Part shown: positions 1-10,746 of the stretch, piece by piece
Position numbering within the stretch: position 1 is the stretch's first letter
Layout of the letters: each line of letters starts with the position of its first letter
Assembly: GCA_048938855.1 (NCBI GenBank)
Contig: JBHLLT010000003.1
Location: 1 to 64,000 of the forward strand
Source: Promethearchaeota archaeon
GTDB lineage: Archaea > Asgardarchaeota > Lokiarchaeia > Sigyniarchaeales > SOKP01
Length of the DNA stretch: 64,000 nt
Direction: 5' to 3'
Notes under the pieces: generated by a model
What the model saw: the letters and a program-made list of their open reading frames with translations, nothing else
The model's database searches: none
Told to the model about the DNA's origin: nothing
Program-made: the position numbers and the translations under genes

Positions 1-193
1 TGTCTGTAAGTGACTTCACGTCTATCGGCTTGTCACTATAGATCGGGTTATCCGGCTGTGGAGCCATGTGGGAAACGTTCGCCTTTTTTAGAGAGAAATA
101 TTCCCCCGGCTTCGCGTTATCGTACGCATTTCTAACCATTTCAGAGATTGCTTCTATTTTTCTTTTATGTATTGCTAGTTTTTCTTCGCTCAT
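1..193 (-). CDS. FAD-binding oxidoreductase (FAD_binding_4, DHCR24/BfaA-like), N-terminal part only; runs off the window edge
   Basis: Not in the ORF track. Manual translation from ATG at 193: MSEEKLAIHKRKIEAISEMVRNAYDNAKPGEYFSLKKANVSHMAPQPDNPIYSDKPIDVKSLTD, open to position 1. Resembles the N-terminus (H..K+..I / L+K..VSH..P / IDV..L) of prokaryotic Delta24-sterol-reductase-like flavoproteins. Confidence 0.55.
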   Translation of the reverse strand, partial: MSEEKLAIHKRKIEAISEMVRNAYDNAKPGEYFSLKKANVSHMAPQPDNPIYSDKPIDVKSLTD

Positions 194-581
194 GTCGAAC
201 ACAGGGTTGGGATTATTGCACAAAACGATCTTTTTTTCGTATTACTTTCCATATTTTTGTTTAATTCCATTAATGAAGCAAGAGATTTTATGTTTAAATT
301 ACTTTTTAATTTAACTGATTTATATTATTAATCATTTTATTTAGTTGATTATATGTATGAATGAGGATATTTTTATTGTTTCAGCAGAGTATGGTAGGTA
401 TCTTGTTGAATCTAAATCTATAATAACTTTAATATTTTTCTTATACTGAAATTCGCATTGTTCATATTCATTGTAGACTATCTAATAGATTAGAAGAGAC
501 ATGACCTTTTAATCAGATTATTTAATGCTTTATATTATAATCAAGAGAAGAATTTCTGGTTAGATGATCTCTTTTTTCCAA

Positions 582-1637
582 TTATGTTGTTATAGGTTTT
601 TTCATATCCTCTTCCAGTTCGAATTTTCTTTTTTTGCGCCGTGCCATTTCAACAAACGCCTCTATACGTGTAATCATACCTGCTTCTCCCGAATGTTCGT
701 CCATTGTAATTTCCAGGAAAGGTAAACCTACAACCTTCATATCTCGCATTATTAATTCTGATATCAAACTATCTGGACCGCACGCAAAACTAACAAGAAA
801 GATTACGCCATCAATCTCATTGCGTCCTTTAGTTAAAAAATACCGAATTGCTTGCATAATTTCCTCTTCATGTTTCCAATAATTACGTAAACGTTTATTA
901 ACAATAACTGGGACCTTAAAAATGGATTCAGGTAGATTTTCTATAGTTAAGACTTCTACCCCTTGATCTCTTAATTTCTTTTGGAAGTCTAAATTAATAA
1001 AAGTATCAAAGATATTATAAGCATGCCCAAGAAGAAGAAATCTAAGGTCTCCCTTATATTTTTTCCTCGGTAAAGTAAATGGGCGGTTATATTCTACAAG
1101 CCTTAAAGCATGATTTACAGGAGCTCCATCCTGTAAAAATTTGTGGTACTCATCAAAGTATTTCTGCGCTTCTCTGTAAGCATTCAATGAATCGTTTTGA
1201 TTTTTGCCTAATTCTCTCCCTAATTCAATAACAGATGTAGCAATTGGAAATTCCTTAACATTAACTTCGAAGTTCAATAGTTTAGGAACCTCTGGCAAAA
1301 TCTTAATAACATCAGGTAGGGATAAAAATTTTGGACAGAAAAATGCCTCCTTTACCTCCGCTACATATCTTGGCACAAATATATAATCTAAGTCTGGATG
1401 ATCACGAACCAATTTTAAAACTTGACCATAATAAATCTTTACTGGAATACAGAGTTCTCCAAATCCATGTGTCACTCCCTCTTCCACTATTTTCTTATTT
1501 GTTGGTGGACTTAAAATGATCTCAACATCCAATTCCTCGAGAAGTTTTTTCCAAAAAGGAAAATACCGATAAAAATGAAGTGCCCTTGGTATTCCAACTT
1601 TAATGTTTTTCTTATTTGATTGCTCACTTGATTCCAT
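582..1637 (-). CDS. Acyl-CoA dehydratase activase-related protein (DUF2229/COG3580), Fe-S reductive module
   Basis: KVGIPRAL, ELCIPVK, FFCPKF, LLGHAYN, SFACGPDS and DEHSGEAG-x-ITRIEAF motifs; three conserved Cys. Confidence 0.85.
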   Translation of the reverse strand: MESSEQSNKKNIKVGIPRALHFYRYFPFWKKLLEELDVEIILSPPTNKKIVEEGVTHGFGELCIPVKIYYGQVLKLVRDHPDLDYIFVPRYVAEVKEAFFCPKFLSLPDVIKILPEVPKLLNFEVNVKEFPIATSVIELGRELGKNQNDSLNAYREAQKYFDEYHKFLQDGAPVNHALRLVEYNRPFTLPRKKYKGDLRFLLLGHAYNIFDTFINLDFQKKLRDQGVEVLTIENLPESIFKVPVIVNKRLRNYWKHEEEIMQAIRYFLTKGRNEIDGVIFLVSFACGPDSLISELIMRDMKVVGLPFLEITMDEHSGEAGMITRIEAFVEMARRKKRKFELEEDMKKPITT

Positions 1638-1657
1638 TTATTCAATTCCTCAAAAAC

Positions 1658-3334
1658 TTACGCTTCAGATGTATCGTAATAAAGCAAATCTCTAATTTGG
1701 TCCATCATTTTAGCTGTAAGTCTCTTAAGTTCATCATAATCAGGCATAGGTTTATCCCAATACTTTTGATGTTCCATAAATGGTGGTCCCGCCCTTAAAA
1801 TCTGACCTTTATAAAATTTCAACATTTTAGCATGTTTGGGGTAAGTCTGCTCGGTACCAGTTATACCAATAGGAATTATGGGAACTTTGGTTTCAATTGC
1901 CAATCGCATAGGACCTGTATGCCCCTCTAAAAGTTGACCATCTCCAGGATTGGTAGTTCCTTCTGGATATGTACAAACACACTCTCCTTGTTCTAAAAGT
2001 TCTCTAGCATAAGTAAAAGCATCTATATCATGCATTCCTCTCTTTAATGGAAATGCATGATGATTTCTTACCCAAGCATTAACTAATGGAAATTTAAATA
2101 ATGATTGTTTCGCCATTTGCCACATTACTCTTCTTGGTTCATGACGTATTAAAGTAGTAGCTAGAATAAGCACATCCCATTCTGAATTATGACTGGGACA
2201 AAGCAAAACACCACCTTCTTTAGGTATGTATTTATCAAAATCTATTGCTTTATATGGCATCATAAGATCAGACCAAGTACCCACTAAATCTCCCGAGAAT
2301 GCCATGACAGTTTTTTGAAATTGTCTACGTACACCAAATTCTTCCAAAGTCTTTAAAAGCGCATACCAAGAATCATCTATAAGCCGGAGAACACCTTTTG
2401 CTTGATCCTTCAAATAACCCATGAAATTAAAACTAGATTTTTTCTCCGCTTCTTCTGGAGCACCTATTGAAAGTTCCTGATCTTCTTCTTTACCGTAAAT
2501 TCCTTCTCTTAATTCCCATACATTATTTCGAAGCTCATCAGTTAATCTACGGATATCTTCATATGATACTGTATTGATGTCATATTCATGATAATAGATA
2601 GGATCCCCTACACGAACTTTTACTTGAGTAGGTTTCATAACAAGATTTCCTTTAGGTAATGCGTTTTTAGAACCAATTACTGCCATTGGAACAATTGGAA
2701 CATCCATCTCTATAGCAAGTCGAACTGCTCCAGTTTTAAACTCTCCTAACACTCCATCTTTCGAGCGGGTTCCTTCTGGGAATATTCCTACCCACTCACC
2801 ACCGGAAATAATTTCTTTAGCTTTTTCCCATCCTCGTTCAGGATTTTCTCGGTCAACTTTAAAGGCACCAAGATTATTGAAAAGAGTTCTTACAATTGGT
2901 GTTTTAAAATTATCCAATTTGCTCATATAACGAATTCTACGATGACAAGCTGCTCCATAGAAGAAGGGGTCAATATGAGATTCGTGGTTGCCCACTAGAA
3001 TGCCTGGACCATATTCAGGGAACATATTCCCTTTTGGATATTCGGCTTTAAAGTTCCAAAATGTTCGGACAGCCCATTTAATATAAATATATGCAGCCCA
3101 CCATTGTAACCGTCCTTCAATAGATTTTAACTCTAAGCGTTTGATAATATAGCGATATAAGTCATTTAAAGGATCGATTGGATTATATTTTAAGATTTTA
3201 TAAGTTATATCTTGATGTCGTTTTTCGTATTTTAGCTCTTCTTGCATCTTTTCTTCAATACTTTTCTTGAGATCGAGCTCTCGAGCTGTATCTACTCCTC
3301 TTTTATCTAATTCTTCAAGTTCCATATTGTTCAC
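1658..3334 (-). CDS. plsC: Tandem two-domain PlsC-family (lysophospholipid) acyltransferase
   Basis: Domain 1 has NHESHID and FPEGTRS. Domain 2 has SHNSEWD and YPEGTT. Both retain the HX4D catalytic motif. Confidence 0.9.
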   Translation of the reverse strand: MNNMELEELDKRGVDTARELDLKKSIEEKMQEELKYEKRHQDITYKILKYNPIDPLNDLYRYIIKRLELKSIEGRLQWWAAYIYIKWAVRTFWNFKAEYPKGNMFPEYGPGILVGNHESHIDPFFYGAACHRRIRYMSKLDNFKTPIVRTLFNNLGAFKVDRENPERGWEKAKEIISGGEWVGIFPEGTRSKDGVLGEFKTGAVRLAIEMDVPIVPMAVIGSKNALPKGNLVMKPTQVKVRVGDPIYYHEYDINTVSYEDIRRLTDELRNNVWELREGIYGKEEDQELSIGAPEEAEKKSSFNFMGYLKDQAKGVLRLIDDSWYALLKTLEEFGVRRQFQKTVMAFSGDLVGTWSDLMMPYKAIDFDKYIPKEGGVLLCPSHNSEWDVLILATTLIRHEPRRVMWQMAKQSLFKFPLVNAWVRNHHAFPLKRGMHDIDAFTYARELLEQGECVCTYPEGTTNPGDGQLLEGHTGPMRLAIETKVPIIPIGITGTEQTYPKHAKMLKFYKGQILRAGPPFMEHQKYWDKPMPDYDELKRLTAKMMDQIRDLLYYDTSEA

Positions 3335-3444
3335 ATATTGTTATTAAAATAAGTGTGAAAAATTAATAAAAAACAATCTTTTCAGCTGAATTATTTTTAT
3401 TAAAATACCCTTTTATATAAAAAATTAATGGTTGGGATAATACG

Positions 3445-3462
3445 CTAAAAAGTATGATTATT
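3445..3462 (+). repeat. 18-bp direct repeat, copy 1 (CTAAAAAGTATGATTATT)
   Basis: Identical to 6170-6187; the flanks are also similar (AATGGT upstream, TGAAAAAATAA downstream). Confidence 0.7.
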
Positions 3463-3665
3463 CATTAGTTGAAAAAATAAAGCAGTACTTTTTTTGCATA
3501 GTCAAAGTTCCTCTTGACTTTTATATGTCTAAATACAGCTCCTCTAAACTACCTTAGAAAGATTTAAGATACCATAATTAAGAGAATCAATTTTAAAGTA
3601 AAAACTAAAAGTAAAAAAAAATTGAAATTTATATTTTTGATGACTAATTTACTTTAGAATTGGCA

Positions 3666-10011: not shown

Positions 10012-10746
10012 TTAATTTTTCAATAATTTTAAGATATCATCTAAAGATTCAAACATAATGTCAGGTTTGTATTGTGTTAAAATTTCAGCTTTACTCACCC
10101 CACTTGCGACCCCTATAGTCCAAAAACCTGCTTCACGACCAGCTATAATGTCTGAAGGCATATCACCTATCATTAAAAATTCATCTCTACGACGATTTTT
10201 ATAATTTTCTAAAGCTGGTTGAAGTGCTAAAGGATCTGGTTTTTGAACAGGTATTTTATCACTTCCATAGATTCCTTTAAAATCTGAATCAAGCCCTTCT
10301 TTTGTTAAATGCGTAATTATTGTTTCTGTTTTATTATGGGAAACAATAAAAAGATCAAAAGTCTTGCCTAATTTTTTTAGCAAAGGTTTCACTGTCGGGA
10401 AAAATTGGGCTTCTTTTGCATATTCAAGATATTTAGCAAAAATCTTAACAGCAATTTGTAATTTGTTAAAATAACTTAAACCTTGGAGTGCAGTTATATG
10501 GTTAAAAATTTCATAAGATTCAAGTAAAACCTTAGGTAGAGGATATCCTTGGATTGTTTCTAATAAAGCACCGATCTCTTGTATTGTTGCTTCCATATCA
10601 ATATCTAACTTCTTTTCTCCTAAGACTTCTTCGATTGATTTTTTGATAATTTCCCTTATATCAAGTAAAGTTCCATCAAAGTCAAATATTATTCCACGAA
10701 GTGAACCTGCTTGAAGTAATTCAATTAACTGCTTATCTCTACTCAT
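10012..10746 (-). CDS. HAD-superfamily hydrolase (phosphoglycolate phosphatase-like)
   Basis: DFDGTL motif I, KPDP motif III, GDMPSD motif IV. Confidence 0.9.
   Translation of the reverse strand: MSRDKQLIELLQAGSLRGIIFDFDGTLLDIREIIKKSIEEVLGEKKLDIDMEATIQEIGALLETIQGYPLPKVLLESYEIFNHITALQGLSYFNKLQIAVKIFAKYLEYAKEAQFFPTVKPLLKKLGKTFDLFIVSHNKTETIITHLTKEGLDSDFKGIYGSDKIPVQKPDPLALQPALENYKNRRRDEFLMIGDMPSDIIAGREAGFWTIGVASGVSKAEILTQYKPDIMFESLDDILKLLKN

Follow-up and report, generated by a model that had tools for sequence, protein, structure and literature searches.

The stretch analysed here, referred to below as the window (G000:C62:1-64000), comprises 64,000 nucleotides of contig C62 in the Lokiarchaeial assembly GCA_048938855.1, and its position 1 is the end of that contig. 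Close to this end lie two genes, both on the minus strand. The first, PlsC2 (1658..3334), encodes two PlsC/LPLAT acyltransferase domains in a single polypeptide; the second, P0001 (582..1637), encodes a stand-alone DUF2229 (PF09989) protein of 351 amino acids (aa), hereafter the D subunit. The list of open reading frames (ORFs) thus agrees with the initial annotation, which had described a co-oriented dual-PlsC and DUF2229 pair 20 bp apart. The 20-nt spacer (1638..1657, minus strand) reads TAA-gtttttgaggaattgaataa-ATG and contains a Shine–Dalgarno-like GAGGA motif, an arrangement that suggests co-transcription and coupled translation of the pair. The AT-rich region 5′ of PlsC2 (3335..3665, minus strand), with a TTATATAAAA element ~80 nt before the ATG, presumably contains the operon promoter. 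Counted from the GTG at 3334, the PlsC2 ORF is 558 aa long; the likely start is rather the ATG at 3325, which shortens the protein to the 555 aa of public records.

Two stretches of PlsC2 match PF01553 in Pfam (E 7e-57), and TIGR00530, the NCBIfam model of 1-acyl-glycerol-3-phosphate acyltransferases, is likewise found in two stretches (E 1.4e-46). Each domain carries both hallmarks of the PlsC/LPLAT family, namely the HX4D motif (HESHID at 117, HNSEWD at 382) and motif III (FPEGTRS at 185, YPEGTT at 456). Among 64 full-length orthologues, HX4D is present in domain 1 of all 64 and in domain 2 of 63, with HNSEWD in 62. Weak lyso-ornithine-lipid and Aas-type matches were also obtained. The genome holds three PF01553 matches, all inside the gene cluster described below, and the domains of PlsC2 are its only catalytically intact PlsC-family domains. 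A 231-aa PlsC-fold protein encoded on another contig (C25:19212-19907) lacks both catalytic motifs. It belongs to a series of PlsC-fold proteins of 229-274 aa (C25:19212-19907 in locus L019, and the second PlsC-like genes of loci L030 and L127) with neither HX4D nor motif III, whose genes adjoin the activase or sit between PlsC and D; these proteins are probably non-catalytic.

P0001 matches PF09989 over residues 13-234 (E 2.1e-44, 152 bits), and a C-terminal HGD-D match covers only residues 273-331, that is, 59 residues, at 30.7 bits against a cut-off of 28.4. The three Cys motifs noted earlier (ELC, FFCPK and FACGPD) are indeed present and hold all the cysteines of the protein (GELC63IPV, AFFC101PKF and SFAC286GPD); C63, C101 and C286 are invariant in an alignment of 79 stand-alone homologues, which has nine invariant columns in total. 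The AlphaFold model of P0001 (pLDDT 94.9) finds its best PDB folds, by Foldseek, in the beta subunit of (R)-2-hydroxyisocaproyl-CoA dehydratase (3o3n_B), the double-cubane cluster protein DCCP and the class I benzoyl-CoA reductases (BCR) BzdNO/MbdON, with E-values from 1.9e-10 (3o3n_B) to 1e-7, TM-scores of about 0.5-0.58 and 13-17% identity. By sequence, the similarity to PDB entries is marginal (HadB, E about 2e-3). Since the model fold is accompanied by three invariant Cys, P0001 can be taken as one catalytic-type subunit of the BCR/2-hydroxyacyl-CoA dehydratase (BCR/HAD) superfamily of ATP-dependent radical enzymes, whose fold, three-Cys site and activase (in the cluster) are all found here; the three-Cys site is predicted to bind a [4Fe-4S]-type cluster. 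Pfam detects no PF01869 match in P0001. Two BcrAD_BadFG domains fused N-terminal to D, the so-called BBD core, are absent from it, the activases being separate genes. Overall, the conclusion that P0001 is the D (alpha-like) catalytic-type subunit of a split three-component ATP-dependent enzyme of the BCR/2-hydroxyacyl-CoA dehydratase superfamily is well supported. It does not go with the 2-hydroxyacyl-CoA dehydratases of amino acid fermentation (PF06050), an identity that had been considered at the outset: the HGD-D match is a partial, 59-residue tail, the PDB sequence match stays at E ~2e-3, and no fermentation genes, such as those for a CoA-transferase or a 2-hydroxyacid dehydrogenase, were seen next to the cluster in the loci examined.

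It is also important to explain where the remaining subunits are. The initial annotation had placed the activase and COG3581-type genes outside the window, which is true, but only because position 1 of the window is the end of contig C62. In the genome, which contains eight BcrAD_BadFG matches, a search for an activase and a second subunit found both on contig C25. The two contigs can be connected through a related locus, L034, where an 806-aa fusion of a flavoprotein and a D domain (FAD-D) is followed by an activase. Residues 1-67 of this fusion match C62:202-2 with 95.5% identity, and residues 38-343 of the activase begin at C25:1 (both by tblastn). As the FAD-D fusion starts on C62 and its following activase begins at C25:1, the starts of C62 and C25 are almost certainly adjacent across a gap of ~2.3 kb. 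Many related assemblies likewise end within ~1 kb past the D gene.

The second subunit is HGDlike396 (396 aa, C25:16769-17959), followed by act310, a BcrAD/HgdC-type activase (C25:18065-18997). The HGDlike396 family, which we call R, has three invariant Cys and is homologous to the D family (hhalign probability 99.9%, E 2e-31). The R-family profile gave no match to PDB sequences and was placed by fold search instead, in which the R model retrieved the same HAD/DCCP/BCR subunits as D. Hence, D and R are paralogues and look like the alpha/beta pair of a BCR/HAD-class enzyme, and the second HAD-fold component, of the PlsR/HGD-D type, is supplied in trans by HGDlike396. Because their counterparts stand directly after the D gene in at least 20 related loci, we assign HGDlike396 as the R (beta-like) subunit of the P0001 enzyme and act310 as its activase.

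The association of PlsC2 with D is kept throughout the class, as the initial annotation had proposed to check. Our survey covered 80 loci, taken from genomes that each represent a species; as the genomes sampled are closely related, neither these locus counts nor the genome counts below are independent. A PlsC2 homologue stands upstream of D on the same strand in 75 of the 77 loci with enough upstream DNA, and the gap in these 75 loci has a median of 21 bp and is ≤60 bp in 66. Such adjacency is far beyond chance. The orthologues of P0001 are 66-95% identical across the family, those of PlsC2 49-89%. In a class-level sample of 151 genomes from 29 genera, a D homologue, counted at E ≤ 1e-30, was found in 122 genomes and 28 genera, and PF01553 in 134 genomes; both were missing together from at least 10 genomes, one of them rated 100% complete.

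What follows the D gene is more variable. In the 80 loci, the first recognised downstream module was HGDlike396 with an activase in 20, a BBD protein with its partner in 12, and the FAD-D fusion with an activase and HGDlike444 in at least nine. In a 4.36-Mb single-contig genome from another family, the genes for PlsC, a PlsC-like protein, D, R and the activase follow each other in this order, and a second single-contig genome has PlsC, D, R and activase in order. Two further families (f30/f32; L128:2465-11131 and L130:6767-15493) encode a triple-PlsC protein of 876 aa, a LarA-type racemase (a homologue of the nickel-pincer 2-hydroxyacid racemase), a HAD phosphatase of 488 aa, D, R and the activase. 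At locus L128, a radical SAM gene comes after the activase. Judging from gene order, the conserved core is composed of acyltransferase(s), D, R and activase, and within the family of the present genome it is often split by the insertion of other modules. The core operon is found in the single-contig genomes G178 and G228 and in the 10-contig genome G155.

Two such modules are present here. Next to the contig end, ~360 bp of AT-rich DNA separates the D gene from the next gene, starting near 202, which is the FAD_binding_4-DUF2229 fusion gene mentioned above (2..202, minus strand); its first 67 codons, recognised by tblastn to the 806-aa fusion of L034, are all that remains before it runs off the contig. 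In full-length relatives, where it has 806-837 aa, Pfam recognises a VAO/PCMH-type FAD_binding_4 flavoprotein joined to a second split-type DUF2229 domain. Downstream of the fusion gene come an activase of its own and a 444-aa HAD-fold partner; on C25, these are act280 (C25:79-921, cut by the contig start) and the HAD-like protein HGDlike444 (444 aa, C25:915-2249). The second module consists of BBD985 (985 aa, C25:2635-5592), with two activase domains and DUF2229, and R468 (468 aa, C25:5598-7004), which has no Pfam match. They form a two-gene pair ordered like plsA-plsR in the same supercluster. The similarity of R468 to a Fusobacterium PlsR-type protein is marginal (BLAST E 0.006), so the label "PlsA/PlsR-like" refers to architecture and gene order, not to orthology of R468. 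In the closed genome CP070831.1, a BBD protein and its partner lie ~2 kb downstream of the D orthologue and share 73% and 61% identity, respectively, with BBD985 and R468. The full order there is PlsC2, D, a reversed 3-hydroxyacyl-CoA dehydrogenase gene, BBD, BBD partner, TrmO and a peptidase; the last two match their counterparts on C25. A gene for a UbiA-family prenyltransferase (C25:11953-12801, minus strand) is also found on C25, in the stretch that separates the PlsA/PlsR-like pair from HGDlike396 and its activase.

How does P0001 relate to the known ester reductases? The initial annotation had presented DUF2229 as the reductive domain of PlsA and Ger, and it is indeed named the reduction domain of Ger/PlsA by Sahonero-Canavesi et al. 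2022. PlsA and Ger are also the only PF09989 proteins found with a tested function, and both perform ester-to-ether conversion under anaerobic conditions. PlsA/PlsR of Clostridium perfringens (CPE1194/1195), themselves BCR/HAD-family enzymes, have the same list of parts as the cluster described here, that is, a BcrAD/HgdC-type activase, a PF09989 D domain and a second HAD-fold subunit, and they likewise occur in anaerobic organisms and in a lipid context; single-gene forms of PlsA exist in Listeria, Enterococcus and Lactococcus. However, PlsA has fused activase domains, of which P0001 has none, and no acyltransferase genes were seen beside the bacterial PlsA-type genes examined, whereas here they share an operon with D. 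Ger (Thermotoga maritima Tmari_0479; Desulfatibacillum alkenivorans SHJ90043) combines PF09989 and HGD-D-type domains with two activase domains in one polypeptide of BBDH type, while the D, R and activase of the Lokiarchaeial cluster are encoded by three genes of a sister branch. Ger turns the sn-1 ester into a saturated alkyl ether, which it does only anaerobically, and every confirmed producer of alkyl ethers retains the BBD core (Sahonero-Canavesi et al. 2022). The same authors reported homologues of Ger from Lokiarchaeota, among them the cultured strain; these probably correspond to the BBD985-type protein and not to P0001.

We compared the D domains by means of a hidden Markov model (HMM) of the stand-alone type and a quick maximum-likelihood tree (IQ-TREE, SH-aLRT support), in which plasmid-collection records of BBD proteins from Listeria monocytogenes, Fusobacterium animalis and Paraclostridium bifermentans served as proxies for PlsA and Ger. 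The HMM gave 401 bits for P0001, 321-442 bits for split-type D and 130-199 bits for BBD-type D, whether Asgard or bacterial. In the tree, Asgard BBD D domains grouped with the PlsA-type domains of Listeria, Fusobacterium and Paraclostridium. P0001, which is only 24-29% identical to the Asgard BBD D domains, fell into a clade with D proteins from other Lokiarchaeial families, the FAD-D fusions and another PlsC-adjacent D; Omnitrophota were sister to this clade. Owing to its position in the split-type branch, both by HMM scores and by tree, P0001 is best described as a cousin of PlsA/Ger and not an orthologue. The initial suggestion of a split PlsA/Ger system therefore holds in that P0001 is one subunit of a split system, but fails in that its D domain lies outside the PlsA-type clade.

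The true family of P0001 is a set of bacterial split modules. A scan of all protein representatives returned hundreds of stand-alone D proteins of ~330 aa with 30-41% identity, as well as D-R fusions of ~700-770 aa; the named stand-alone examples were bacterial (Omnitrophota, Thermoleophilia) and came from D-R-activase three-gene modules. In such modules, D (329-340 aa, 35-41% identical to P0001), R (376-407 aa) and activase (~330-341 aa) are separate genes. The same module is found in Monoglobus pectinilyticus (WP_102365312/311/310), whose R is 34% identical to HGDlike396 (E 2e-64). RefSeq names the three components acyl-CoA dehydratase activase-related protein, 2-hydroxyacyl-CoA dehydratase and acyl-CoA dehydratase activase. 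PlsC stands beside the split module class-wide in Lokiarchaeia but adjoins none of the bacterial modules examined. At a Thermoleophilia locus (L035:3657-10301), D-R-activase comes directly after genes for a glycosyltransferase, a polysaccharide deacetylase and LPG_synthase_TM, and this is the sole bacterial membrane-lipid-like context that we saw. With HadBC, BzdNO/MbdON and DCCP, P0001 shares the subunit fold, three-Cys ligation and dependence on an ATP-driven activase, but it differs from them in Pfam family, with 13-17% identity and TM-scores of ~0.5-0.58.

Taken together, the data induce us to propose that PlsC2 and D stand at the start of a cluster of lipid genes that is conserved throughout Lokiarchaeia and performs ester-to-ether chemistry. 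This is the best single reading, and we would give it a probability of roughly 40%, short of even odds. The link of D to lipids is supported by the presence of a PlsC2 homologue upstream in 75 of 77 loci, by the restriction of PF01553 in this genome to the cluster, by the joint absence of D and PF01553 from some genomes and by the HAD phosphatase neighbour; the precedent for ester-to-ether conversion comes from the tested PF09989 proteins being PlsA and Ger and from the PlsA/PlsR-like pair in the cluster. The phosphatase in question, of the HAD-IA type (10012..10746, minus strand), is ~6.7 kb from PlsC2 in this genome; its position upstream of PlsC2 is conserved in relatives, and it shares 56% identity (E 3e-100) with the HAD gene that immediately precedes PlsC2 in genome G083. 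In the proposed mechanism, PlsC2 would esterify fatty acyl groups onto glycerol phosphate or a lysolipid acceptor, the activase would drive a low-potential electron into the [4Fe-4S] pair of D and R at the expense of ATP, and the D/R pair would reduce, and possibly dehydrate, the lipid ester carbonyl to yield an alkyl or alk-1-enyl ether, as bacterial PlsA/PlsR and Ger do. Since a PlsA/PlsR-like pair and a FAD-D module share the supercluster, the FAD-D, BBD985 + R468 and D/R modules may carry out several related reductive steps on the same lipids.

Several observations weigh against such a reading. Lipid analysis of a cultured Lokiarchaeon found only isoprenoid archaeal lipids, though the methods used might miss ester lipids. 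In the present assembly, R and the activase are on a separate contig, and their linkage to D comes from synteny. The D-domain tree separates the split type, P0001 included, from the BBD type with an SH-aLRT support of 97, and the bacterial split modules examined are mostly not beside lipid genes. To our knowledge, there is no split-type member, bacterial or archaeal, with a tested function. About 10 genomes of the class have PlsC2 and no D at E ≤ 1e-30, and G083 has no D/R/activase modules in the interval from PlsC2 to the PlsC-fold gene. G083 is a natural deletion variant (L032:14142-18421) consisting of a HAD phosphatase gene, PlsC2, a small deaminase-toxin-like gene and a PlsC-fold gene. 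Given that some relatives keep PlsC2 without the D gene, we conclude that the D module is accessory to acylation.

The main rival explanation is that D, R and the activase act on a soluble acyl thioester, making or modifying an acyl donor for PlsC2, so that the product is an unusual ester lipid and not an ether. All solved structural relatives of P0001 act on CoA thioesters or small molecules, and the RefSeq names of the bacterial homologues point to acyl-CoA dehydratase components. Moreover, the LarA-type 2-hydroxyacid racemase located between the PlsC genes and D in f30/f32 is reminiscent of the pairs of a racemase with (R)-2-hydroxyacyl-CoA dehydratase, and a 3-hydroxyacyl-CoA dehydrogenase gene is beside the pair in CP070831.1. 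Nevertheless, no CoA-transferase or CoA-ligase was recognised among the cluster-adjacent genes examined, in a search that was not exhaustive, and no CoA-transferase or fermentation-pathway genes were near the cluster in the loci examined. By Pfam, P0001 is a PF09989 protein whose HGD-D tail spans only 59 residues, and its similarity to HadB in the PDB is marginal (E 2e-3). We consider the thioester route unlikely.

According to another scenario, which we find about as doubtful, the cluster acts on some other membrane or secondary-metabolite substrate, for instance in tailoring isoprenoid lipids or their head groups, or in producing a neutral lipid via the phosphatase, and the reduction has no relation to ester-to-ether conversion. 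PlsC-family acceptors are diverse, as the weak lyso-ornithine-lipid and Aas-type matches of PlsC2 recall, and the operon includes a HAD phosphatase as well as, in certain families, three PlsC domains. The UbiA prenyltransferase within the C25 stretch and the flavoprotein-D fusion in the cluster would also be in keeping with this scenario. However, nothing specific indicates such a substrate, and the closest functionally defined relatives of the D domain are ester reductases. Finally, it is very improbable that PlsC2 and D are neighbours merely by descent within one family, without functional meaning: the sampled genomes are mostly close kin, which inflates the apparent independence of the counts, G083 has PlsC2 only, and locus L055 has D with no PlsC2 homologue in 4.6 kb of upstream contig, but the link survives fission, fusion and rearrangement (1-3 PlsC domains, with PlsC identity of 27-34% and D identity of 43-47%), the ~21 bp spacer carries a ribosome-binding motif, a related-clade D gene on another contig is PlsC-adjacent too, and at least 10 genomes have neither gene.

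Returning to the ester-to-ether reading, it is tempting to go one step further and suppose that Lokiarchaeia, probably including the cultured strains, use this class-wide operon to make fatty-acid glycerolipids, and that these are turned into alkyl or alkenyl ethers, beside the archaeal lipids, by a previously uncharacterised split branch within the PlsA/Ger family. This extended version is speculative, and we regard it as improbable at present. If true, it would mean that the closest archaeal relatives of eukaryotes make non-isoprenoid, bacterial- or eukaryote-style ether lipids too, which touches upon the open question of the "lipid divide", that is, the fatty-acyl membranes of eukaryotes versus the isoprenoid ethers of their archaeal ancestors. 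PlsC genes in Lokiarchaeota were described by Manoharan 2019 and in work cited therein, and the presence of PlsC genes and of Ger homologues in Asgard genomes has been published separately. In full-text literature searches on DUF2229 and on PlsC and ethers in Asgard archaea, we came across no account of a PlsC-DUF2229 operon link. New here is that the gene with the only intact acyltransferase domains is physically tied, in a conserved operon, to a radical enzyme defined as three proteins, and that the same cluster harbours two more modules of related type. In addition, the locus draws attention to a split-type branch within the PlsA/Ger family that is widespread among bacteria and archaea, and it provides a small, explicit set of genes for anaerobic expression and for lipidome and transcriptome searches in cultured Lokiarchaeia.

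We would also like to comment on some details of the neighbouring genes. The FAD domain of the FAD-D fusion was considered as an alkyl-dihydroxyacetone-phosphate synthase (AGPS), but it is not specifically of this kind: AGPS was matched only at E ~7e-3, and the best PDB sequences were cytokinin dehydrogenases (E 1.5e-18), then EncM and DprE1. Many FAD-D open frames carried one TGA codon ("1 TGA"). Selenocysteine was rejected as an explanation, as the stop-free ORF at locus L022 has 837 aa versus 846 aa for the read-through frame; the TGA most likely lies just upstream of the start codon. Inside the window, the HAD-IA phosphatase gene (10012-10746) and PlsC2 are separated by a metallopeptidase gene and an ABC-exporter stretch, which would fit with insertions into an ancestral HAD-PlsC2 neighbourhood. 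PlsY (PF02660) has a single match in the genome (C34:303283-303798), located inside an unusually long open frame of 402 aa.

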